From a virus (lineage: Duplodnaviria; Heunggongvirae; Uroviricota; Caudoviricetes), in IMG/VR virus record IMGVR_UViG_2724679140_000015: a stretch of DNA of 35,494 nucleotides. The stretch is one strand, 5' to 3'. Positions 22,893-35,494 of the stretch are shown piece after piece; the stretch's first letter is position 1, and each line of letters opens with the position of its first letter. A program made the translations under genes and the position numbers. The notes beneath the pieces were generated by a model. That model was not told the DNA's origin. It worked only from the letters and a program-made list of their open reading frames with translations, and made no database searches.

Positions 22893-23243
22893 TTAAAGCC
22901 CCATCGCAACAGCCAGGCAGACCGCTGCAACAATCAGTGCACGGCGGATTAACGCAGCAGAAAACACCAGGTGAAGGCCGGTCTGTACCGGGAAACGCCC
23001 TTCAGCCATCAGCCTGTCGTCATGTTTCAGGTACTGACCGGGACGGGCTTTGGGGAAGAGCGAACGGTCAAGCCAGTAACCCAGCACTGCTGCCAGCGTG
23101 ATGAGTGCCAGCTTGTAGATCACAACAGGCAGTTGCTGTGGTGAGACCAGAGCGATGGTGCCCAGCAACAGCACTGAGGTCAGCAGCCAGCCGCTGAGGC
23201 GAGGTTTTTTAACAGGGGGAATGAATGTTTTCAGGTTTTTCAT
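22893..23243 (-). CDS. putative holin (small membrane protein)
   Basis: Two to three predicted transmembrane segments; AAGGAG 6 nt upstream of ATG at 23243; immediately upstream of endolysin. Confidence 0.45.
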   Translation of the reverse strand: MKNLKTFIPPVKKPRLSGWLLTSVLLLGTIALVSPQQLPVVIYKLALITLAAVLGYWLDRSLFPKARPGQYLKHDDRLMAEGRFPVQTGLHLVFSAALIRRALIVAAVCLAVAMGL

Positions 23244-23373
23244 GTGTGTCTCCTTATCTGGTGGAGACAGCATCACAAATACAGGGCGCGAAGGATTTTA
23301 AAGCGCGTTAAGAGAGCCGGGGATACGGGATGTGCAGGATAAACGATGAATTATTCACAGAGGAGAATACGAT

Positions 23374-24117
23374 ATGACGCAGACACTGAATCCGGTCATC
23401 ACTGTCACCGTGTCCGGTCCTGTGGGCAGCGGTAAAAGTTACATATTGGCGCGGATAGAGGAAGTGGTGAAACAGGAATTCGGAAACAGCGTCATTGTCG
23501 ACGCCGCAGACGTGGACGGTGAGCGCCGTATGAGTGGGGGTGATCTGAGCACATGGCAGAAACCACGGGCAGGCACACTTATCCGACTGGAGGAATACAC
23601 AGAAAAAACTCCGATGTCATACAGCGAGGGATGCATTCTCCGGACGAATGCACTGCTGGATGTTATATGCCCCACAGGCCAGTACCCATGGACACTGCCC
23701 GATGCACTGCATGCCACTATTGCGGCACTGATGGCAGTTTACGATCAGGAGCTGCTCATGAAGGAGCTACGTAAACTCACTGGTCAGCCAACAGAATGTT
23801 TTTCGGCCCCGAAGTACGGGAAGCAGGAACACATCCCGGTGAACACAATCCCCGTTAACCAGCCTCCCCGGTTCTTCGACGAATACATTCTGACACCGGA
23901 AAATAAAGCTGAGCATGAAGTGATCAAAGAGGCGTTGTTCCGGGAAATCAGGAAGATTGCTGAAATGCAACTGGAGGGCGGGCTGGACAGAGTGATGGCG
24001 AGAGGAGAATGGGAATCGCTGTTTGAAAGAACTTCCCCGGAATTACTTCCCCTCGCACTGGCTATCGGGATTATGCAGACAGCGGATAAACCTCACTTAC
24101 GTTCATTAAACACGTAA
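23374..24117 (+). CDS. small P-loop NTPase/kinase-like protein, function unknown
   Basis: Walker A-like GPVGSGKSY near N-terminus; GAGGAG RBS 8 nt upstream of ATG. Confidence 0.5.
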   Translation: MTQTLNPVITVTVSGPVGSGKSYILARIEEVVKQEFGNSVIVDAADVDGERRMSGGDLSTWQKPRAGTLIRLEEYTEKTPMSYSEGCILRTNALLDVICPTGQYPWTLPDALHATIAALMAVYDQELLMKELRKLTGQPTECFSAPKYGKQEHIPVNTIPVNQPPRFFDEYILTPENKAEHEVIKEALFREIRKIAEMQLEGGLDRVMARGEWESLFERTSPELLPLALAIGIMQTADKPHLRSLNT

Positions 24118-24497
24118 CTCATAATCCGGGATACGCGTTCAGCGATGACTGCATTTTCACCGGTTTTTACTGCATCCAGAAGTGACTCTTTAAATGGTGC
24201 GGGCCGGGGCTGCAGAAGGGTCGGCGTGGCATTGAGCAGACGGAGCGTTTTTTCCGTGAGGACGACATCAGCCGCTCCCACAGCCAGCAACTGAGAGTAA
24301 CGAATATAGCTGTTATCCCGAAGCCATATCAGCGTATCAATAAAATACCGGCACTTTTTCTGGTCGTGATCAACCTGGTCCGGGATATCGAAAAAACCAG
24401 AATAAATCAAAACCTGAGGTGCCGGATGCGTGTTCAGTAATCGGCAGAATATTTTGCCGGTGAGTGCATAAAAATCATCATTTAAGGAGTGCATCAT
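24093..24497 (-). CDS. hypothetical protein, paralog 1 of a duplicated ~130-aa family
   Basis: Shares several conserved blocks with 24963-25343 (e.g. IFxRL, DTxxWLxxxxY, LNATP). Confidence 0.45.
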   Translation of the reverse strand: MMHSLNDDFYALTGKIFCRLLNTHPAPQVLIYSGFFDIPDQVDHDQKKCRYFIDTLIWLRDNSYIRYSQLLAVGAADVVLTEKTLRLLNATPTLLQPRPAPFKESLLDAVKTGENAVIAERVSRIMSYVFNERK

Positions 24498-24711
24498 GAA
24501 TCCCCGATTAACGTTAACAGAACATCAGCGCCGTGCTGAAGCAGTGAACAATGTTCTGGAAGATATTATCCGGTTACATCGCGGAGAACTGAGTGTCTGT
24601 CGTGCCACAGTTCATTTTCAGGAAATACAAAAGCAGTTTGATACTTCTGTTTTTGCAGAAGGTATTACTTATGCCCTGGACCAGATAAGGTCAGAAAATC
24701 GCCCCGGATAA
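24496..24711 (+). CDS. hypothetical 71-aa protein
   Basis: Strong AAGGAG RBS 6 nt upstream of ATG; start overlaps the divergent start of paralog 1. Confidence 0.35.
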   Translation: MNPRLTLTEHQRRAEAVNNVLEDIIRLHRGELSVCRATVHFQEIQKQFDTSVFAEGITYALDQIRSENRPG

Positions 24712-24902
24712 TCCCTAAACCACATTAACAGAAATCACTTCATCCCTGCCGCATCATGAAAGAACGACCAGCCCGGTGCTTCGGACCCACCGGGCTGGCC
24801 ATCGTCCCACAGAAGTGGCTGTGAGCCGACCGAGGTTCAGTCAGTCTCGCGAGACCAGACTAGCCTGCCATATTTTTAATAATTGTAAAATGTTTACAGA
24901 TT

Positions 24903-24956
24903 ATGAAAACGCAGACATTACCCATCGTTCCATGGATTGGTGGCAAACGCTGCCTT
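24903..24956 (+). pseudogene. truncated remnant of a Dam-like methyltransferase N-terminus
   Basis: MKTQTLPIVPWIGGKRCL matches the N-terminus of the intact gene at 25538 (MKEQSLPIVPWIGGKRRL); frame diverges and stops at 25004; upstream ~85 bp also duplicated. Confidence 0.45.
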
Positions 24957-24962
24957 GCGATA

Positions 24963-25343
24963 TTACATAAGACCACGAGACATATATTGCAGACCTATTC
25001 CTAGAGTCTGGCTAACCAGTGATCGCAACGCTTCTTTCCCTTCAATTTTTATAGAGTCAGATATTCTGGCCCCCAACGGTTTTTCCAGACTTCCAGGCGT
25101 AGCGTTTAATACCTCAAGACCTTTAGCCGTTAGCACTGCGTTGTGGATCCCCCCAGAACTACGCGCCCCGATTAAATAGCCACTGTTTTTAAGCCAGTCT
25201 ACGGTATCAAGAAAAAAAGTAAGTTCATTCTGTCTAACGATATCAACTGCCTTTATATCAATTTTGACGGGGAAAGATTCGTAGAGTCTCCCAAATATCT
25301 CACCAACTATTTCATTAAACCGCTCAATATTTTTTGGGGCCAT
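24963..25343 (-). CDS. hypothetical protein, paralog 2 of the duplicated ~130-aa family
   Basis: Likely start at internal ATG (MAPKNIERF...) at 25343; ORF-track start at 25427 probably over-extended. Confidence 0.45.
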   Translation of the reverse strand: MAPKNIERFNEIVGEIFGRLYESFPVKIDIKAVDIVRQNELTFFLDTVDWLKNSGYLIGARSSGGIHNAVLTAKGLEVLNATPGSLEKPLGARISDSIKIEGKEALRSLVSQTLGIGLQYMSRGLM

Positions 25344-25537
25344 GGTATTAGTAACTCCCTTTAATTGTCGCCCATGAAATATGCAAATAACATGAAAAGA
25401 GCGACTCACCTTGTGCAGCGAACACAAGGCGAGTCATCAACTTACAGGTATGAGCTGTGAGTCAACCGAGGCTCTTCCGTTCTCGAGAACAAGGGAAGCC
25501 TATCGCATTTTCATCTAATGAAAAAGGCTTACAGATA

Positions 25538-26302
25538 ATGAAAGAACAATCTTTACCCATCGTCCCCTGGATTGGGGGAAAACGTCGTCTGGCCAAACAC
25601 ATTCTGCCCCAGTTCCCACTCCATACCTGCTATGTGGAGCCATTCTGCGGCGCAGCAGCACTTTATTTTCTCAAGACTCCCAGCAAGATCGAAGTCATTA
25701 ACGATATCAACGGTGAACTGGTAAATCTGTATCGGGTAGTAAAGCATCATCTGGAAGAATTTGTCCGCCAATTCAAATGGGCGCTGGTTAGCCGGCAGAT
25801 CTACAAATGGCAGCAGATCACCCCGGAAGAAACACTGACGGATATCCAGCGTGCGGCACGGTTCTACTACCTCCAGAAGCAGGCGTTTGGGGGCAAGGTG
25901 GCAGAGCACAGCTTCGGCACCTCCACCACCTCCCCGCCACGCTTCAACCTGCTCCGGATTGAAGAAGAACTGTCAGCGGCACACCTGCGGCTTTCCAGAA
26001 CGGTGATAGAACACATGGACTGGCACCAGTGCATTAAGCGTTATGACCGTCCGCACACGCTGTTCTACTGTGATCCGCCCTATCTGGGGACGGAAGGCTA
26101 TGGTGTGGATTTTCCTGAAGAGAACTACACACTACTCGCAGAACTGGCACGGTGCATCAGAGGAAAGATGATTATCTCGGTGAATGACATTCCGCAGATG
26201 CGTCGGGTGTTCACTGAACTGAACATACAGACGGTGAATATCAACTACAGTCTGGCGGGGAAACCCACGCCGCGCCGTGAACTGGTAATCTGCAACTTCT
26301 GA
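25538..26302 (+). CDS. orphan Dam-like N6-adenine DNA methyltransferase
   Basis: N-terminal PWIGGKR and FCGAAA (AdoMet-binding-like) and catalytic DPPY motif; start at ATG 25538 preferred over GTG 25457. Confidence 0.7.
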   Translation: MKEQSLPIVPWIGGKRRLAKHILPQFPLHTCYVEPFCGAAALYFLKTPSKIEVINDINGELVNLYRVVKHHLEEFVRQFKWALVSRQIYKWQQITPEETLTDIQRAARFYYLQKQAFGGKVAEHSFGTSTTSPPRFNLLRIEEELSAAHLRLSRTVIEHMDWHQCIKRYDRPHTLFYCDPPYLGTEGYGVDFPEENYTLLAELARCIRGKMIISVNDIPQMRRVFTELNIQTVNINYSLAGKPTPRRELVICNF

Positions 26303-26308
26303 AACAAA

Positions 26309-26333
26309 ACCGGAAAGCACAATGCTTTCCGGT
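26309..26333 (-). terminator. hairpin (11-bp stem) followed by T-rich tract on the minus strand; likely terminator downstream of the repressor gene
   Basis: CCGGAAAGCA-CAA-TGCTTTCCGG read directly; minus strand continues TTTTGTTTC. Confidence 0.4.
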
Positions 26334-26418
26334 AAACCAAACAACTTCCACTATGTCACTGGCGATGTTTTCTGAAAGCATCCAGATCAACCACGCGCCC
26401 TTTGTGTCCAGGTCAAAA

Positions 26419-26757
26419 TCAGCCTGCGAGTTTGCTTGGTTTGGGTTGAATGAAGACTTTGCCGACCTCAAGAATTGCCCTCCGTTGTTCGGGGCTCATT
26501 TCGTCGAATGCATCCATTAACTCTTTCTTTTCTTGTGACACATAAGGTGCAACAACAGGCTGACTCCGCACCCCAGTAACTACATACAAAATATCTACAC
26601 CGATTTCTGATAGTGCAGATAACTGCACTGCAGTAGGAGAAGTGCGATCTTTTTCCCAATCAATGAAAGTTCTCTTTGCCACACCTATAGCATCAGCCAA
26701 CCCTTGCTGTGTAAGAGATAGACGCTCTCTTTCTTCTTTAATACGTAACCCGATCAT
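26419..26757 (-). CDS. phage repressor, XRE-family helix-turn-helix
   Basis: HTH-like LSLTQQGLADAIGVAKRTFIDWE; divergent from the ner-like gene; start at ATG 26757 preferred because the ORF-track start (26910) overlaps ner by 50 bp. Confidence 0.5.
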   Translation of the reverse strand: MIGLRIKEERERLSLTQQGLADAIGVAKRTFIDWEKDRTSPTAVQLSALSEIGVDILYVVTGVRSQPVVAPYVSQEKKELMDAFDEMSPEQRRAILEVGKVFIQPKPSKLAG

Positions 26758-26781
26758 GTGAGTTTTTCTGCACTCTTTAAG

Positions 26782-26810
26782 TTGACTGGTGAGATAATCT
26801 GCACCATAAT
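26782..26810 (+). promoter_or_regulatory. candidate early promoter (TTGACT-17 bp-CATAAT) with repeated ATAATCT motifs (operator candidates)
   Basis: Sigma70-like hexamers read directly, ~45 bp upstream of the ner-like start. Confidence 0.35.
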
Positions 26811-26857
26811 CTATCACACATAAGGCAAACATCATTGCATCAACAAAGGAGACAACG

Positions 26858-27046
26858 ATGACTGCAGAACAAGTCAAAGCTCTCTTCCGCCAGCGCGGGA
26901 TCACCTTCACCCGCTGGGCAGAAGAAAACGGCTACAACCGCAATGAGGTATACCGCGTTCTCAATGGGCAGACCAAAGCCCGTTACGGTAAATCCCATGA
27001 AATCGCCGTGAAGTTGGGGCTGAAATCAACAGCTCAGGCAGCCTGA
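26858..27046 (+). CDS. ner: Ner-like DNA-binding protein
   Basis: 62-aa ORF with Ner/Nlp-like pattern; AAAGGAG RBS 5 nt upstream; first gene of the rightward early block. Confidence 0.55.
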   Translation: MTAEQVKALFRQRGITFTRWAEENGYNRNEVYRVLNGQTKARYGKSHEIAVKLGLKSTAQAA

Positions 27047-27098
27047 AGATTTTGAGTCTTTGTAAAAGGTTATCACATATCGCAAAAGAGGTATGCAG

Positions 27099-27407
27099 AT
27101 GAGTAAGACGAATGTTTCAAGCTCCGGCAGTCGCATCCTCCGGGTACTCAAAGCGCTGCGCGGTCATGCCCTGAACGGTATTTCCAACGGTGAACTGGCG
27201 GCAGCACTGCACGAGTCACCGGCAAACATCAACCGGGCACTCAACACCCTCATTGAAGAAGGGTTGGCCCTGAAACTGGAAAACGGGCGTTTCGCGCCGG
27301 GCATCCAGTTACTGCAGATCGCTATGGCCCACAGTAACGAGATGGCACGTGCACAGGATCGCATTAACGAAATCAACCAACGTGTCATTTCAGGTAGTCG
27401 TTTGTAA
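27099..27407 (+). CDS. putative winged-helix DNA-binding protein
   Basis: RILRVLKAL...ISNGELAAAL...INRALNTLIEEGL resembles a MarR/IclR-type wHTH; RBS AAAGAGG 7 nt upstream of ATG 27099. Confidence 0.4.
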   Translation: MSKTNVSSSGSRILRVLKALRGHALNGISNGELAAALHESPANINRALNTLIEEGLALKLENGRFAPGIQLLQIAMAHSNEMARAQDRINEINQRVISGSRL

Positions 27408-27417
27408 GGAGTAATAA

Positions 27418-28329
27418 ATGGGACGCACCAAATCACCGATTAACACTGAACTGAACGCCGAGGTACCGCTGTCGGATGATCTCAATGTCAGTCTGAACGC
27501 CATGACACAGCATCGCATGGAGATCATGCAGCAGTTTGGCGATGGTCAGCCCTATGAGCGTGATCGCATAGTTCATGAGGCTCGGTTTTATATGGCACAG
27601 AGCGCTGAGGCCATGCTGGAAGCAGGTAAACGACTTATTATTCTCAAAGAAAATGAACCACACGGGGACTTTGTTGGAATTGTAGAAGAACAACTTGGTC
27701 TGCATGTGCGCGCAGCACAACGAATGATGAAAGCATCTTTGAAATACCTTTCACCAAAACTAGAGCCAAAAGCGACAACGTTGTCGCTTTTAGGTAAGGC
27801 AAAATTATTTGAACTTGTTGCTGAAGATGACGACGACCTTGCTGAACTGGCCGACGGCGGCACAGTCGCAGGACTGACGCTTGACGATGTTGATCGCATG
27901 TCAGTACGTGAATTGCGTCAGGCCCTGCGCGAAGCGCGCGAAACCAACGCAGCACAACAGCGCGTACTCGCCGACAAAAATGAAAAAATAGACTCACTCT
28001 CCACCAGACTGGAGAAGAAATCCCGTATTCAGCCGCCTGAGCCTGATGAGGAGGTTAAGAAGCTGCGGGCGGAAGTAACAGCATTAGCGGTTGAGGCGGA
28101 ATCTGCTATCGCCGTTCGACTGTCCAGCGCTTTTGAGACACTGTGCGCATATTGTGCTGAAAACATGATTGATACCCCCAGAGATTTCATGGCAGGCCTG
28201 GTCTGTCAACTGGAAAGCACAGCGCGTAGCCTGCGCTCCACATTTGACCTGCCGGACGAGCCAACAGGCAATGCAGCGCCTTCATGGCTGACTGAGCCGA
28301 CGCCACAGATTAACGGGCTGGAGGCATAA
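27418..28329 (+). CDS. hypothetical early protein
   Basis: 303-aa ORF with TAAGGAG RBS; sits between ner and the transposase gene. Confidence 0.4.
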   Translation: MGRTKSPINTELNAEVPLSDDLNVSLNAMTQHRMEIMQQFGDGQPYERDRIVHEARFYMAQSAEAMLEAGKRLIILKENEPHGDFVGIVEEQLGLHVRAAQRMMKASLKYLSPKLEPKATTLSLLGKAKLFELVAEDDDDLAELADGGTVAGLTLDDVDRMSVRELRQALREARETNAAQQRVLADKNEKIDSLSTRLEKKSRIQPPEPDEEVKKLRAEVTALAVEAESAIAVRLSSAFETLCAYCAENMIDTPRDFMAGLVCQLESTARSLRSTFDLPDEPTGNAAPSWLTEPTPQINGLEA

Positions 28330-28332
28330 CCA

Positions 28333-30102
28333 ATGAATGCTGCCCTGACTGAACGACTGGTTTATGTCGCCCGCGCGGCACGTGACGCGGGGCATGGTAA
28401 ACGCGGTGCAATATACGACGCTGCCTGTGCTGAACTTGGCATGTCCCGCGCCACTCTGCTGCGCAGGCTGAAGGAGGTCTCTGTGACTGATAAACGCAAA
28501 AAACGCGCCGATGCCGGGCGCAGCGCCCTGACCCGCGACGAAGCCGCGCTGATATCTGCCACACTGCGTGAGGCCACCCGCAAGAACGGTAAGCGTCTTT
28601 ATTCCATCGCGGATGCAGTGGAAACCCTGCGGGCTAACGGCTTTATCTCCGCAGGCAGAACAGATGAAACCACCGGTGAGTTTTTCCCGTTGTCCGAAGA
28701 TGCCATCAGTCGTGCCCTGCGTAACTATGGCCTGCACCCGGAACAACTGGATGCCCCTGCACCGCATACCGAAGTGGCCAGTCTGCACCCCAATCATGTC
28801 TGGCAGATTGACGCCTCACTATGCACGCTTTACTACCTGAGCAATGGACATAAAGGGCTGCAGGTGATGGACAGCGCGAAATTCTACAAGAACAAGCCCG
28901 CTAACCTTGCCCGTATCGCCAGTGACCGCGTGTGGAGTTACGAGATTACCGACCATGCCAGCGGCTGGATTTACGTTGAGTATGTGACGGGTGCGGAATC
29001 CGGTGAGAACCTGTGTTCTGTGCTTATCAACGCCATGCAGGAGCGCGGTGGCGCAGACGTGCTGCACGGCGTGCCGAAAATACTCTATCTCGACCCCGGT
29101 TCGGCGAACACCGCGGGTATGACGAAAAACATGTGCCGCTCACTGGGCATCGACCTGATAGCGCACAGGCCGCATAACGCCCGCGCCACCGGACAGGTGG
29201 AAAAGGCGCGTGACATTATCGAACGCAAGCTGGAGCCGGGTCTGAAGTTCCGGCCGGTTCACAGTCTGGAAGAACTCAACGCGCTGGCCGCGAAATGGCG
29301 CAGCCACTTTAACGCCACGGCTGTTCACAGCCGCCACGGTAAAACCCGCACGGATATCTGGCTGAAGATTACTGCTGAGCAGCTGAAAAAAGCGCCTTCC
29401 GTTGAGGTATGTCGTGAACTGGCTGTGGCGGCACCAGAACTCCGCAAAGTCACGCCAAAACTTCGTGTCTCGTTCCGGGGCACTGAATTTGACGTATCAA
29501 CGGTACCGGGCGTACTGGTCGGTGAAAAACTGATGATTACCCGTAACCCGTGGCGCAGCGATGTGGCACAGGTGGTTCTGACCGGTGAGGACGGCCACGA
29601 GACGTTCTTCCTGGTCGAAGAGGTCAGAAAGAACGAGTTTGGCTTTGCTGAAGGCGCGGCGGTATTTGGCGAAAGTTACAAAGCCCTGCCGGAAACCCCG
29701 GCGCAGATGGCGGCAAAAGAAACCGAAGCGCTGGTCACCGGTACAGACAACGCCGCAGATGCAGCTGCCGCACGCAAGGCGAAGGCACTGCCGTTCGGCG
29801 GACGACTTGACCCGTATAAACATATTGATGACGCCACACTTCCGGCCTATATGCCGAAGCGTGGTCAGGCCTCTGACGTACGCGGGCCGCGCACTGAACA
29901 ACGTCCCATGACTCATGTGGAGGCCGCGAAAGCCCTGCGCGATAAGTTCAGCGCCAACGGCCTTACCTGGACGCCGGAACATTACCGCCAGTTAACGGCA
30001 CAGTACCCGGACGGCGTACCGGAAGCCGCACTGGATGAAGTCATGGCCACGCTGACCACGCCGGTCCGCAGCAGTGTTATCAGCATTGTTAACGGCAACT
30101 GA
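28333..30102 (+). CDS. DDE transposase A (retroviral integrase-fold)
   Basis: 589-aa ORF with N-terminal HTH-like region and catalytic-core-like WQIDAS...ITDHASG motifs; followed by the ATPase gene. Confidence 0.75.
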   Translation: MNAALTERLVYVARAARDAGHGKRGAIYDAACAELGMSRATLLRRLKEVSVTDKRKKRADAGRSALTRDEAALISATLREATRKNGKRLYSIADAVETLRANGFISAGRTDETTGEFFPLSEDAISRALRNYGLHPEQLDAPAPHTEVASLHPNHVWQIDASLCTLYYLSNGHKGLQVMDSAKFYKNKPANLARIASDRVWSYEITDHASGWIYVEYVTGAESGENLCSVLINAMQERGGADVLHGVPKILYLDPGSANTAGMTKNMCRSLGIDLIAHRPHNARATGQVEKARDIIERKLEPGLKFRPVHSLEELNALAAKWRSHFNATAVHSRHGKTRTDIWLKITAEQLKKAPSVEVCRELAVAAPELRKVTPKLRVSFRGTEFDVSTVPGVLVGEKLMITRNPWRSDVAQVVLTGEDGHETFFLVEEVRKNEFGFAEGAAVFGESYKALPETPAQMAAKETEALVTGTDNAADAAAARKAKALPFGGRLDPYKHIDDATLPAYMPKRGQASDVRGPRTEQRPMTHVEAAKALRDKFSANGLTWTPEHYRQLTAQYPDGVPEAALDEVMATLTTPVRSSVISIVNGN

Positions 30103-34682: not shown

Positions 34683-35124
34683 ACAACGTCTTATCCAGCT
34701 CATTCATATTGCCCGTAATGAACTGGGTATGGATGAAGACACCTACCGCCAGATGTTAGAGGGGCTGACCGGTAAAGCCTCAACCAAAGGAATGGATACC
34801 ACACAACTAAACTGCGTGCTGGAATCCATGAAAAGGAAAGGCTTTCGCGTTAAGCCTGCCGGAAAAGCCAGCTCCGGTTTACAGCTGGATAACCATCCGC
34901 AGTCCAGGAAAATCCGTGCGCTATGGCTTGAAATGGCTGCTGCCGGCATTGTTCGTGACCGTTCAGAAAATGCATTAGCGCGGTGGATCAAGCGGGAAAC
35001 GGGCATCAGCGCCCTGCGCTGGCTCAGTACTGAACAGGCAAGCAGTGTTATTGAGAAACTGAAGAAGTGGCAGCGCAGAGCTGCGGGAGTAAAACATGAG
35101 CGACCTGAATCAGTTTCGAAGTAA
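34672..35124 (+). CDS. GemA-like protein (Mu gp16-like)
   Basis: Located immediately upstream of the Mor-like gene as in Mu; AAGGAG RBS 5 nt upstream of ATG 34672. Confidence 0.5.
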   Translation: MMTKQRLIQLIHIARNELGMDEDTYRQMLEGLTGKASTKGMDTTQLNCVLESMKRKGFRVKPAGKASSGLQLDNHPQSRKIRALWLEMAAAGIVRDRSENALARWIKRETGISALRWLSTEQASSVIEKLKKWQRRAAGVKHERPESVSK

Positions 35125-35494
35125 AGGGCCGGAACTCCTGGTGGAACTGGCACAGCATACCTCTGAGACCGTTCGCGAGATTATTGATATTGAGCCCGCA
35201 ATTGCCGACCAGATTGGTCAGGCCGTCGCGAACCGAATGATGCAGGTCTGGGGCGGGCAAAACGTTTATTTCCCGATGGGCATGGTATGGAAGGTCAGTC
35301 AGCGCGACCGGGAAATCTTCAGGGAGTTTAACGGACGCAACCACCACGAACTGGCCCGCAAGTTTGGTGTTTCGCTTCAGTGGGTCTACAGCGTGGTTAA
35401 GCGGGTCAGAAAAGAAGAACTGGATCGGATGCAGGGCAGGTTGTTTGATGAAGATCTGCCAGAGGAGACGAAAGACGTTAACAAATCCAGATAA
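35096..35494 (+). CDS. mor: Mor-like middle-operon transcription activator (Mor/C family)
   Basis: 132-aa ORF with C-terminal HTH-like region (GRNHHELARKFGVSLQWVYSVVKRVR); position after gemA-like gene. Confidence 0.55.
   Translation: MSDLNQFRSKGPELLVELAQHTSETVREIIDIEPAIADQIGQAVANRMMQVWGGQNVYFPMGMVWKVSQRDREIFREFNGRNHHELARKFGVSLQWVYSVVKRVRKEELDRMQGRLFDEDLPEETKDVNKSR

Follow-up and report, generated by a model that had tools for sequence, protein, structure and literature searches.

Orphan methylases that phages encode at the position of mom guard phage DNA against restriction by the host and, when mistimed, can be harmful to it. The control of mom-position methylases is known mainly from phage Mu. 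We examined one such gene, dam, in a window (the whole stretch of DNA analyzed) of 35,494 nucleotides that is a BcepMu-like transposable prophage of E. coli. By analogy, dam is the counterpart of mom, whose position in Mu it occupies, and a late DNA-modification function. A first-pass annotation of this DNA, made from the letters alone, had reported that the 5′ region of dam occurs twice, each time with a 12-bp palindrome, and had likened the palindrome to controller-protein operators of restriction-modification systems. Why does this region occur twice, and what does the conserved sequence do?

Results

The dam 5′ region occurs twice

A repeat finder located both segments at a spacing of 635/636 bp with 72 to 74% identity, bearing out the claim that they are homologous. 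The homologous stretches (24759-24958 and 25396-25593) begin approximately 60 nt farther upstream than first noted (at 24759 and 25396), which adds another hairpin. The motif said to recur in both is indeed present, as GCTGTGAGCCGACCGAGG at 24818-24835 and GCTGTGAGTCAACCGAGG at 25454-25471, located 85 nt before the ATG at 24903 and 84 nt before the ATG at 25538; these are the sole close matches within the window, where 0.11 would be expected by chance. Both 12-bp palindromes are exact (GTCTCGCGAGAC, 24844-24855; GTTCTCGAGAAC, 25479-25490). In a global alignment, the copies are 67.6% identical in the 145-nt noncoding part, 75% identical in the first 56 coding nucleotides, and approximately 47% identical in the adjacent flanks. 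The similarity therefore extends beyond the coding N terminus, and the common upstream sequence is better read, as proposed, as a conserved regulatory region than as coding carry-over. Also as described, only copy 2 runs on into a complete dam (Table 1); copy 1 stops after approximately codon 18, six bases short of the par2 stop codon, which lies on the other strand.

Searches of Pfam, PHROGs, and PADLOC for the function of the paralogs par1 and par2 returned only phrog_2266, a PHROG of unknown function, and par2 matched no Pfam or PADLOC family. The dam neighbors par1, par2, and orf71 contain no helix-turn-helix (HTH) and no Pfam family, and all lie in PHROGs of unknown function; of the dam flanks, orf247, par1, orf71, and par2 gave no significant PADLOC match, and dam scored as a methyltransferase only. 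No nuclease open reading frame (ORF) was found flanking dam. The closest genes with an HTH, 0.9 to 1.3 kb distant, encode the phage repressor and a Ner-like protein, and a Mor/C-family activator is encoded at 35096-35494 (phrog_532; E, 2e-45).

Table 1. Mapped features of the dam region (positions in the window)
Feature	Position	Strand	Description
par1	24093-24497	-	Paralog of par2 (par2 versus par1, 27% identity; E, 2e-12)
E1 (copy 1)	24759-24905	+	Resident element before truncated dam stub; covariance model R1, 150 bits; E, 4e-43
E1 H1	24766-24800	+	GACCAGCCCGGTG / loop CTTCGGACC / CACCGGGCTGGCC
E1 a + b	24806-24827	+	a, CCCACAG (24806-24812); 6-nt loop; b, CTGTGAGCC (24819-24827)
E1 H3	24834-24865	+	Three tiers, GGTT-C-AGTC-A-GTCTCG / CGAGAC-CA-GACT-AGCC; apex, palindrome 24844-24855; from folds and covariation
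E1 H4 + c	24873-24899	+	T-run/A-run (24873-24890); decayed c and Shine-Dalgarno, TGTTTACAG (24891-24899); from alignment
dam stub	24903-24958	+	First ~18 codons of resident dam; homology ends at 24958
Foreign patch within dam	24959-25650 (~690 bp)		From identity breaks versus single-copy E. coli prophages
par2	24963-25343	-	126 aa; phrog_2266 (function unassigned in PHROGs); paralog of par1
E2 (copy 2)	25396-25540	+	Imported element before functional dam; R1, 133.6 bits; E, 4e-38
E2 H1	25403-25435	+	GACTCACCTTGTG / CAGCGAA / CACAAGGCGAGTC; minus-strand reading terminator-like, then CTCTTTTCAT
E2 a + b	25441-25463	+	a, CTTACAG (25441-25447); loop; b, CTGTGAGTC (25455-25463)
E2 H3	25470-25500	+	GGCT-C-TTCC-GTTCTC / GAGAAC-AA-GGGA-AGCC; apex, palindrome 25479-25490
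E2 H4 + c	25508-25534	+	H4, TTTTCAT-CTA-ATGAAAA (25508-25524); c, GGCTTACAG (25526-25534), -12 to -4 of dam start codon
dam	25538-26302	+	254-aa D12-class N6-adenine DNA methyltransferase; Pfam PF02086, E 2e-27; PADLOC MTase_II, E 8e-114

The second copy arrived in a recombination patch

The earlier account of the repeat, local duplication followed by divergence, is contradicted by comparison with other prophages: the flanks are 92 to 100% identical to single-copy prophages, while the two copies differ by approximately 30% and copy 2 is 87 to 95% identical to other lineages (for lineage L012, over 25457-25575). Positions 23300 to 24958 are 95% identical to single-copy E. coli prophages; sliding identity to the same prophages is 45 to 82% inside the patch (over 25380-25650) and 87 to 100% from 25655 on. 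In most E. coli prophages exactly 635 bp are missing, and E1 is joined to full dam. E. coli SK1144 has such a single element before full dam, and E1 of the window is 95% identical to it. The patch contains par2 on the opposite strand, element E2, and approximately 35 dam codons; its left junction (24958/24959) is illegitimate, and its right junction, formed by homology, lies inside dam near 25650. These breaks show that the resident dam acquired, by recombination, a patch of approximately 690 bp that came from another lineage. Homology within dam resolved the right end of the patch, and its left end joined behind resident codon 18 in an illegitimate event, leaving E1 and 18 codons as a stub. 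Two element copies are present because a patch with its own E2 entered the resident gene, and not through duplication in place.

The two-copy form occurs in 5 of 5,426 complete E. coli genomes, always in the same arrangement, and the one-copy form occurs in approximately 630; the patch is 99.9% identical among the five carriers. A search of E. coli genomes and IMG/VR for a donor returned only this two-copy arrangement and Photorhabdus homologues with 53 to 58% identity, in which par2 is downstream of dam. The open frame of the stub continues to 25004, giving a 33-aa relic. In the Shine-Dalgarno region the stub carries TGTTTACAG in place of the GGCTTACAG of functional copies, and the G-to-T and C-to-T changes in this segment (segment c) are confined to stub copies (the window, C51, and L166). 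Judging from these substitutions, the ribosome-binding region of the stub has begun to decay.

The repeat belongs to an element that precedes dam or com-dam in related phages

The element, of approximately 145 nt, lies on the dam strand directly before dam or com-dam in approximately 118 of 152 related loci (88 nonredundant and 30 more). These loci come from Gamma-, Beta-, and Deltaproteobacteria. Phage B3 carries the element too, before its com gene ORF47. All matches to nhmmer and to covariance model R1 are on the dam strand and directly adjoin dam or com. In related phages dam is preceded by a com gene, forming com-dam operons, and in 15 loci an ORF for a Com-like zinc finger begins immediately behind segment c; enteric members are without com, and dam follows the element directly. 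Com-methylase operons are known to occur in Mu-like prophages (PMC3299994). BcepMu-like phages have the leader-(com)-dam unit between their lysis genes and repressor, B3 has it in the tail operon, and others have it near a genome end; it travels as a cassette among transposable phages.

No Rfam 15 family for the element was found in window positions 23000-27500 at E ≤ 5 or in 14 diverse loci at the gathering score. The scan of 23000-27500 returned three chance-level matches only (E of approximately 1.2 to 1.3, eukaryotic miRNA/HLE families, far under their gathering scores). The element is not described in the literature that we searched. The RNA motif of Com is CC(N)2-3GAG (PMC6483171); the likeness of CCUGUGAG in segment b to this motif was dropped as a candidate because com-bearing members do not keep it.

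Both window copies contain a 22-codon ORF that ends at the same CTG TGA. A leader peptide was considered and rejected: the sequence of this ORF is not conserved, and its start codon is missing in other members.

The palindrome is modeled as the tip of a hairpin

A single 12-bp palindrome is not rarer than chance in this window, which has 12 perfect palindromes of at least 12 bp versus approximately 9 in shuffles. The nonrandom feature is the homologous position of the two palindromes, together with their persistence as palindromes in relatives. Among 89 sequences, the apex is loop-less and perfectly palindromic through its center in 64, and approximately 25 different apex sequences occur, so that self-complementarity is kept while the sequence varies. 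The symmetry extends into an imperfect three-tier hairpin, H3, with conserved bulges and G-U pairs, in which all pairs covary. Photorhabdus phages tolerate a 7-nt tandem insertion (a duplication) in the apex.

An operator is expected to keep its own sequence. The controller-protein operator reading found no support: there is no adjacent C-type HTH or nuclease gene, the apex sequence varies and tolerates an insertion, the apex type does not follow the repressor type, and the symmetry belongs to a bulged hairpin. In our model the palindrome is the tip of H3 rather than such an operator, and a shape-recognizing protein may bind the hairpin. An RNA hairpin needs no perfect palindrome through its center; that 64 of the 89 sequences have one is a hint that the apex is recognized or formed as DNA.

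Two other readings of the apex were rejected. Against a repressor operator, apex and repressor types do not covary (the same apex occurs with repressors that are 33 to 100% identical), and the half-sites of the apex show no enrichment around the early operator. As a methylase target site, the apex centers (CGCG, TCGA, TGCA, GTAC, CCGG, and others) share no site and include no GATC; neither E1 nor E2 contains GATC, and only 11 of 97 elements hold any. In addition, one and the same dam body stands behind E1 and E2.

Covariation points to a helix over the ribosome-binding region

The element is modeled in four parts: a strong 5′ hairpin, H1; an a/b/c switch; the three-tier hairpin H3 with its palindromic apex; and an A/U hairpin, H4. 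Within the switch, segment b (CUGUGAGCC) would pair either with the upstream segment a (CCCACAG), forming H2, or with segment c (GGCUUACAG). In E1, a and b together make up H2 and the anti-ribosome-binding-site strand, and the GCTGTGAGCCGACCGAGG motif corresponds to segment b plus the junction to H3.

In the main alignment of 97 distinct sequences, which had been fitted to the model structure, all 38 modeled pairs change on both sides, and 88.7% of paired cells are complementary, versus 70.7% when shuffled and 32 to 43% with partners slid; none of 500 shuffles reaches any of these measures. Changes on both sides affect 13 of 13 pairs in H1 (97 sequences), 12 of 12 modeled pairs covary in H3, and H4 covaries as well (C-G to U-A; A-U to U-A or G-C). 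Folding z-scores are -3.0 and -3.7 for the window copies and -5.2 for B3.

The long-range helix b:c joins CUGUGAGCC to GGCUUACAG at -12 to -4 of the start codon, over the ribosome-binding region, and segment a competes as an alternative upstream partner for strand b. The helix is 95% paired in 36 sequences; in the 97 sequences, with an alignment not fitted to b:c, it is 82% paired versus 19 to 44% with partners slid. The shuffle control for b:c is weak (93.8% against 95.1%) because both strands are highly conserved. Distant members show three-way compensatory changes (CACTG/CAGTGAA/TTCAC; CACGG/CCGTGAGCC/GGCTCACG; CCGTAGGC/GCCTACG). The complementarity spans approximately 80 nt, and its wobble pairs are G-U on the plus strand. 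Unconstrained folding recovered b:c in 45 of 59 diverse leaders, with a mean unpaired probability of 0.33 for positions -12 to -1, and segment c overlaps a strong Shine-Dalgarno sequence in some members (e.g., AGGAGGCTCACATG). In E2, a:b outcompetes b:c (6.3 versus 0.9 expected pairs). The occluding helix has comparative and thermodynamic support.

Alternative readings of the element

Strand signals from wobble pairs and folding energies are mixed: H1 and H2 lean toward the minus strand, b:c and H4 lean toward the plus strand, and H3 is neutral. Minus-strand RNA folds better in 33 of 36 elements (H1, 31 versus 5; H2, 32 versus 3), and plus-strand A-C mismatches outnumber G-U in H1 (110 versus 43) and in the outer pair of H2 (70 versus 3), which points to a minus-strand RNA or a DNA-level role for H1 and outer H2. 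One such role would be that of a cis-antisense small RNA or insulator, whose leftward transcript would begin close to the dam start codon, cross H3′ and H2′, and end at H1′, an intrinsic terminator; the RNA would repress dam by pairing with the leader, and H1′ would in addition keep leftward transcripts of the repressor gene or par2 from reading through into the lysis/late operon. We regard this as unlikely. The H1′ of E2 scored as a terminator, with 15 pairs followed by CTCTTTTCAT, and E1 has part of the same combination of stem and U-tract; the conserved left boundary of the element coincides with this U-rich tract. In minimal relatives H1′ lies approximately 35 nt upstream of the holin late promoter, with the repressor gene transcribed toward it, and a minus-strand promoter-like site (TTTTCA-16-TACAAT) is present at 24909-24882. 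However, betaproteobacterial members are without the U-tract (GGTCGCTGTCTCTC), the promoter-like hexamers are not conserved and the -10s are poor in E2 and in the KP12 type, and two columns, possibly just unpaired, account for much of the A-C excess. The plus-strand lean of b:c and H4 and the neutrality of H3 also argue against it, as does the setting: no leftward transcription is expected where plus-strand genes follow dam or where dam is in a late operon, as in B3.

A DNA-level role is also conceivable, if improbable to a similar degree. The dyads (the H3 palindrome and CACAG-N7-CTGTG) would bind dimeric regulators of a dam promoter inside the element, candidates being a Mor/C-type late activator, the phage repressor, or a C-protein-like factor, with a -10 in the H4 loop beside the T-run, as in Mu Pmom. 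No other noncoding DNA upstream of dam is conserved across very different left-hand contexts, and a promoter is therefore expected within the element or at its edge. A T-run followed by -10-like hexamers (AATAAT, TCTAAT) lies approximately 40 bp downstream of the palindrome center, recalling Mu Pmom, which has a T6 run and TAAGAT and whose C site is centered near -43. The frequent loop-less apex and the phage's own Mor/C-family gene also fit this reading. Against it, the apex differs freely among close relatives, recurs with dissimilar repressors, and accommodates the 7-nt duplication; H4 covaries, which is unexpected for a promoter spacer or -10; b:c complementarity reaches over its ~80 nt with strand-specific wobble pairs; and there is neither a C gene nor a nuclease, nor a GATC cluster in the element. 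The late promoter, upstream of holin, has a different conserved motif, TTAACGCnnTTTAAAATCC, which occurs once in the window and outside the element, and a Mor/C site was rejected on this ground. Promoter scans of both strands found nothing conserved; for the plus strand upstream of H1, no convincing conserved promoter was found, and weak -10-like hexamers abut the element. Plain tandem duplication of the dam 5′ region, with palindromes that are chance or neutral, would fit a direct repeat at 635/636-bp spacing and agrees with the near-shuffle frequency of 12-bp palindromes, but we consider it very improbable: besides the flank identities given above, E2 resembles other lineages more than it resembles E1, changes that distinguish the copies compensate each other within hairpins, and the element and its palindromic apex are conserved across the approximately 118 loci.

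Discussion

We are moderately confident in the account as a whole, that the element is a translational-control 5′ leader of the dam (or com-dam) mRNA, a functional analogue of the control of Mu mom, and that its second copy in the window came with the patch. Homology of the copies, their mosaic origin, the distribution of the element, its covariation, and where segment c lies are shown by the sequences; the active strand, the site of the promoter, the trigger, and the reason for the constant palindromic apex belong to the inferred part. In this leader model, plus-strand RNA would be the active form. Pairing of b with c would close a junction around H3 and H4 and bury the Shine-Dalgarno region, thereby turning translation off; pairing of a with b would free the region and turn translation on, in response to a trigger that the model presumes. 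More tentatively, and with rather less confidence than in the leader itself, we suggest that the element represents a previously undescribed, widespread class of phage cis-regulatory RNA that gates translation of an anti-restriction methylase operon (dam or com-dam) in Mu-like phages across Proteobacteria. In that case, the loop-less palindromic apex of H3 could serve as a site of RNA-RNA dimerization that senses the concentration of late-infection transcripts, as a handle for a shape-specific dimeric factor, or as a structure that serves a sense/antisense pair on both strands.

An odd local repeat has in this way become an element of approximately 145 nt with clear boundaries, a covariance model, approximately 118 instances, and a testable a/b/c switch model. 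The case also documents how a gene was rebuilt by a patch that came with its own version of the 5′ end of that gene. In annotations, the element explains tiny spurious ORFs such as ORF45/46 of B3 and the 33-aa relic of the window.

One of the closest known counterparts is the com-mom region of Mu. In both, a late DNA-modification operon follows directly, and for the element its first gene encodes a Com-like zinc finger in 15 relatives and B3. The b:c helix of the element is predicted to bury the translation start region, as does the Com-dependent translation-inhibition structure of mom, and it has a T-run beside a -10-like hexamer, as does Pmom. Unlike com-mom, it shows no sequence or structural homology to Mu: R1 matches nothing in Mu, and homology to Pmom, sought by inspection of the Mu sequence and by the R1 search, was rejected. 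Inhibition by the predicted helix would fall on the leading gene, com or dam, and not on the second gene of the operon, and the helix belongs to a three-part a/b/c switch of approximately 80 nt, whereas Mu uses a short Com-bound hairpin. The element is also without the GATC/OxyR module, its enteric members are without com, and it does not share a C-binding-site motif with the phage's late promoter (TTAACGCnnTTTAAAATCC is absent from it).

Like the C-boxes of restriction-modification systems, the element places dyad symmetry at a fixed distance upstream of a DNA-methylation gene. Unlike C-boxes, it comes without a C gene, an endonuclease, or a conserved box sequence, and it keeps its symmetry while the sequence changes, as part of an imperfect bulged hairpin of more than 30 nt. 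With leaders that sequester the ribosome-binding site (translational riboswitches, RNA thermometers, and kinetic switches such as those of the MS2 maturation gene and hok), it shares anti-Shine-Dalgarno, Shine-Dalgarno-proximal, and competing upstream strands and, in most members, an equilibrium fold that hides the ribosome-binding site. It differs from them in matching no Rfam family, in having no known ligand, protein, or temperature signal, and in its extra long hairpin with a loop-less palindromic apex. As in moron-type cassettes and mosaic scars of phages, leader, (com), and dam move as a unit, and the stub is a typical remnant of illegitimate recombination. In contrast to those cassettes, the incoming patch brought a second copy of the 5′ region of its target gene, so that the gene was rebuilt and not disrupted.

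Two homologous dam upstream elements in a BcepMu-like prophage

A complete transposable prophage of E. coli, BcepMu-like (Bcepmuvirus), makes up the window; it is inverted in orientation relative to BcepMu and closest among named phages to Escherichia phage PhiKM (92.6% identity). BcepMu has the identical divergent layout but lacks a dam gene. The first-pass annotation had described a diverged duplication of the dam 5' region carrying a 12-bp palindrome in each copy, an observation that we confirmed and extended. Its coordinates and sequences were correct: the 18-nt motif occurs at 24818 and 25454 only, both palindromes are perfect, and a repeat finder aligned the segments at 72 to 74% identity with a spacing of 635/636 bp. 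The homology exceeds the extent first described, covering 24759-24958 and 25396-25593. Because the copies are 67.6% identical in the 145-nt noncoding part, versus ~47% in the adjacent flanks, the similarity is not confined to the coding N terminus (75% in the first 56 coding bases). Palindromes of at least 12 bp number 12 in the window versus ~9 in shuffles, and a single one of 12 bp is not unusual; their signal lies in homologous position and conservation. Differences between the copies preceding the truncated dam stub (E1) and the full dam gene (E2) are largely compensatory (CCAGCCCGGTG/CACCGGGCTGG versus GACTCACCTTGTG/CACAAGGCGAGTC; AGTC/GACT versus TTCC/GGGA; GTCTCG/CGAGAC versus GTTCTC/GAGAAC).

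Features of the prophage and its dam region (window positions)
Feature	Position	Strand or direction	Remarks
Late genes	23276 to 1	leftward	from the holin gene
Late motif TTAACGCGCTTTAAAATCC	23293-23311	-	upstream of the holin gene
Accessory island	23374-26400		
par1	24093-24497	-	PHROG 2266
GAGTGCA(T), two direct repeats	24462-24493		between the par1 (24497) and orf71 (24496) starts
E1	24759-24905	+	
dam stub	24903-24958		truncated
Foreign patch	24959 to ~25650		par2, E2, ~35 dam codons
par2	24963-25343	-	PHROG 2266
E2	25396-25540	+	
dam	25538-26302	+	full gene
Hairpin ACCGGAAAGCATTGTGCTTTCCGGT	26309-26333		terminator-like
Repressor	26419-26910	-	
GAGTGCA(T), inverted copy	26763-26780		early operator region
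Predicted early promoter	26782-26810		TTGACT-17-CATAAT
Early genes	from 26858	rightward	include a Ner-like gene
DUF3102 ORF	27418-28329		early operon
Palindrome AAAAGCGACAACGTTGTCGCTTTT	27768-27791		24 bp, perfect
Transposase	28333-30102	rightward	early
Mor/C-type late activator	35096-35494	rightward	with the early genes

Several other sites were observed. The late motif is kept in all BcepMu-like relatives compared, occurs once in the window, and is likely the binding region of the Mor/C-type activator. Where dam and the repressor gene converge, the intervening hairpin is likely bidirectional, since one flank is A-rich and the other T-rich. The palindrome within the DUF3102 ORF is the longest in the window, and AAAGCGAC within it recurs in the dam element's 5' flank. 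The starts of par1 (minus) and orf71 (plus), which diverge and overlap, have two GAGTGCA(T) repeats between them, and an inverted copy adjoins the predicted early promoter; these may be shared repressor operators that place par1 and orf71 under immunity control.

The second copy arrived on a recombination patch

Nearly all of the 635 complete E. coli genomes holding this region lack exactly 635 bp and carry a single E1-type element fused to full dam (e.g., SK1144). Compared segment by segment with such single-copy prophages, the window shows 95% identity over 23300-24958, 45 to 82% over 25380-25650 (yet 87 to 95% there to the lineage of locus L012), and again 87 to 100% from 25655 onward. The patch, 99.9% identical among its carriers, was found in only 5 of 5,426 genomes, each time in the two-copy arrangement. 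The segment identities and this rarity therefore indicate that the second copy came by a recombination patch; the diverged duplication first proposed did not take place locally.

The right junction lies inside dam, by homology; the left is illegitimate, placed where resident codon 18 ends and six bases away from the stop codon of par2. The paralogs par1 and par2 (27% identity) have no match in Pfam or PADLOC, and PHROG 2266 is without known function. Photorhabdus phages carry a par2 homologue downstream of dam and convergent with it, and a donor search of E. coli genomes and IMG/VR returned no closer source than these phage homologues. The dam stub has TGTTTACAG where GGCTTACAG is otherwise invariant, a change consistent with relaxed selection on a translation start that is no longer used. 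In the stub copy of an IMG/VR version of the two-copy prophage (L166, 2439-2583), the apex palindrome is point-changed to GTCTCGTGAGAC, a second sign of drift among stub copies. The duplication itself is an ordinary recombination scar, and a neat case of an incoming patch rebuilding the gene that it interrupted.

A widespread, covarying element abuts the methylase operon

Searches with a profile, followed by a covariance model, recovered the ~145-nt element exclusively on the dam strand, abutting the gene in every case. It occurs in 88 nonredundant loci and 30 of 63 further loci, from Escherichia, Klebsiella, Photorhabdus, Xenorhabdus, Erwinia, Serratia, Burkholderia, Paraburkholderia, Variovorax, Iodobacter, Paludibacterium, Methylophaga, Geobacter, and Desulfuromonas. 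The element's 3' end coincides exactly with the start of a Com-like zinc-finger ORF in 15 loci, with dam following. In the Paludibacterium prophages L049 and L082 (~2309-2600), the Com-like ORF runs into dam with no intervening stop, suggesting either a Com-Dam fusion or a junction that depends on a frameshift. In Pseudomonas phage B3, the element lies upstream of the com gene ORF47 (L175 3730-3866; AF232233 25729-25865); the tiny hypothetical ORF45 and ORF46 are annotated on it and are probably not genes. The covariance model and sequence reading gave no match in phage Mu, and no Rfam family matches the element. Because Mu-like prophages often carry com and then an adenine methylase replacing mom (PMC3299994), we place this dam in the mom role. 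For the methylase operon that is the mom analogue in Mu-like phages, the duplicated unit is a widespread and strongly covarying control element, apparently undescribed.

On the dam strand, the element opens with AGCGACC and hairpin H1 (a 13- to 14-bp stem with a true loop), followed by the junction CATCAAC, segment a (CCCACAG), a 6- to 7-nt loop, segment b (CUGUGAGCC), and the junction AACCGA. H3 is a hairpin of three tiers, interrupted by a conserved bulge and internal loop, and its apex is the palindrome first noted; H4 pairs a T-run with an A-run across a short loop. Segment c (GGCUUACAG) ends 3 nt before the ATG. When 97 distinct sequences are aligned to the model, paired cells make up 88.7%, versus 70.7% when shuffled and 32 to 43% with partners slid; all 38 pairs show two-sided changes, and no shuffle matches any measure. 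With plain MAFFT alignment, 11 of the 14 pairs in H1 alone show double changes.

Segment b has alternative partners, a (forming H2) or c. The b:c helix spans 9 bp and is 95% paired in 36 sequences; an alignment of 97 sequences made without fitting to this helix gives 82% pairing, versus 19 to 44% when slid. In distant members all three segments change jointly (CACTG/CAGTGAA/TTCAC; CACGG/CCGTGAGCC/GGCTCACG; CCGTAGGC/GCCTACG). Where b:c departs from Watson-Crick pairing, the dam strand has G-U; the other strand would have A-C mismatches. Relative to the start codon, segment c runs from -12 to -4, overlapping the Shine-Dalgarno sequence (e.g., AGGAGGCTCACATG). Unconstrained partition-function folding recovered b:c in 45 of 59 diverse leaders, with a mean unpaired probability of 0.33 from -12 to -1. 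In E2, the functional copy, segments a and c are identical (CTTACAG) and a:b prevails over b:c (6.3 versus 0.9 expected pairs). We propose an RBS-sequestering leader in which b:c would hide the ribosome-binding site and the competing a:b helix would serve as anti-sequestor.

Palindromic apex and alternative readings

Of 89 distinct elements, 64 have an H3 apex that is a perfect, loopless palindrome of 8 bp or more; H1, in contrast, has an ordinary conserved loop. Symmetry is conserved and sequence is not: there are ~25 apex sequences, with centers CGCG, TCGA, TGCA, GTAC, CCGG, ACGT, AGCT, GGCC, GATC, and GCGC (B3 apex, GCTCACGTGAGC). The first-pass annotation had likened the palindromes to controller-protein operators of restriction-modification systems, an analogy that is not supported, given this variation, a 7-nt tandem insertion tolerated within the Photorhabdus apex, and the absence of a C gene or nuclease near dam (ORF neighbors, Pfam, and PADLOC). 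A sequence-specific operator is unlikely for the same reasons and because identical apices accompany repressors of 33 to 100% identity, the late promoter has its own, different motif, unique in the window, and GATC is absent from E1 and E2. A promoter or operator acting at the DNA level is a rival reading of low probability. The self-complementary center might reflect RNA dimerization, a dimeric factor that reads shape, or a hairpin tip renewed repeatedly by template switching.

H1 may have a leftward role as well, insulating or ending an antisense RNA, because in H1 and the outer H2 pair A-C exceeds G-U on the dam strand and folding is better on the other strand, E2 H1 read leftward scores as a terminator, and the element's conserved left boundary coincides with the U-rich tract of this terminator-like hairpin. 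In minimal relatives, moreover, the holin operon's late promoter lies ~35 nt downstream of H1, and the repressor gene is transcribed toward H1. H1 of the E1 stub would then be the par2 terminator. Betaproteobacterial members, however, have no U-tract, and a search for a conserved leftward promoter found none; nor was a conserved rightward promoter found upstream of H1. We treat the antisense or insulator model, too, as a rival of low probability.

Interest centers on the duplicated element, not on the duplication: it presents a testable RBS-sequestration switch and an always-palindromic apex. The proposed sequestering leader resembles the translation-inhibition structure of Mu mom as a functional analogue; it differs in that its sequence is unrelated and its target would be the operon's first gene.
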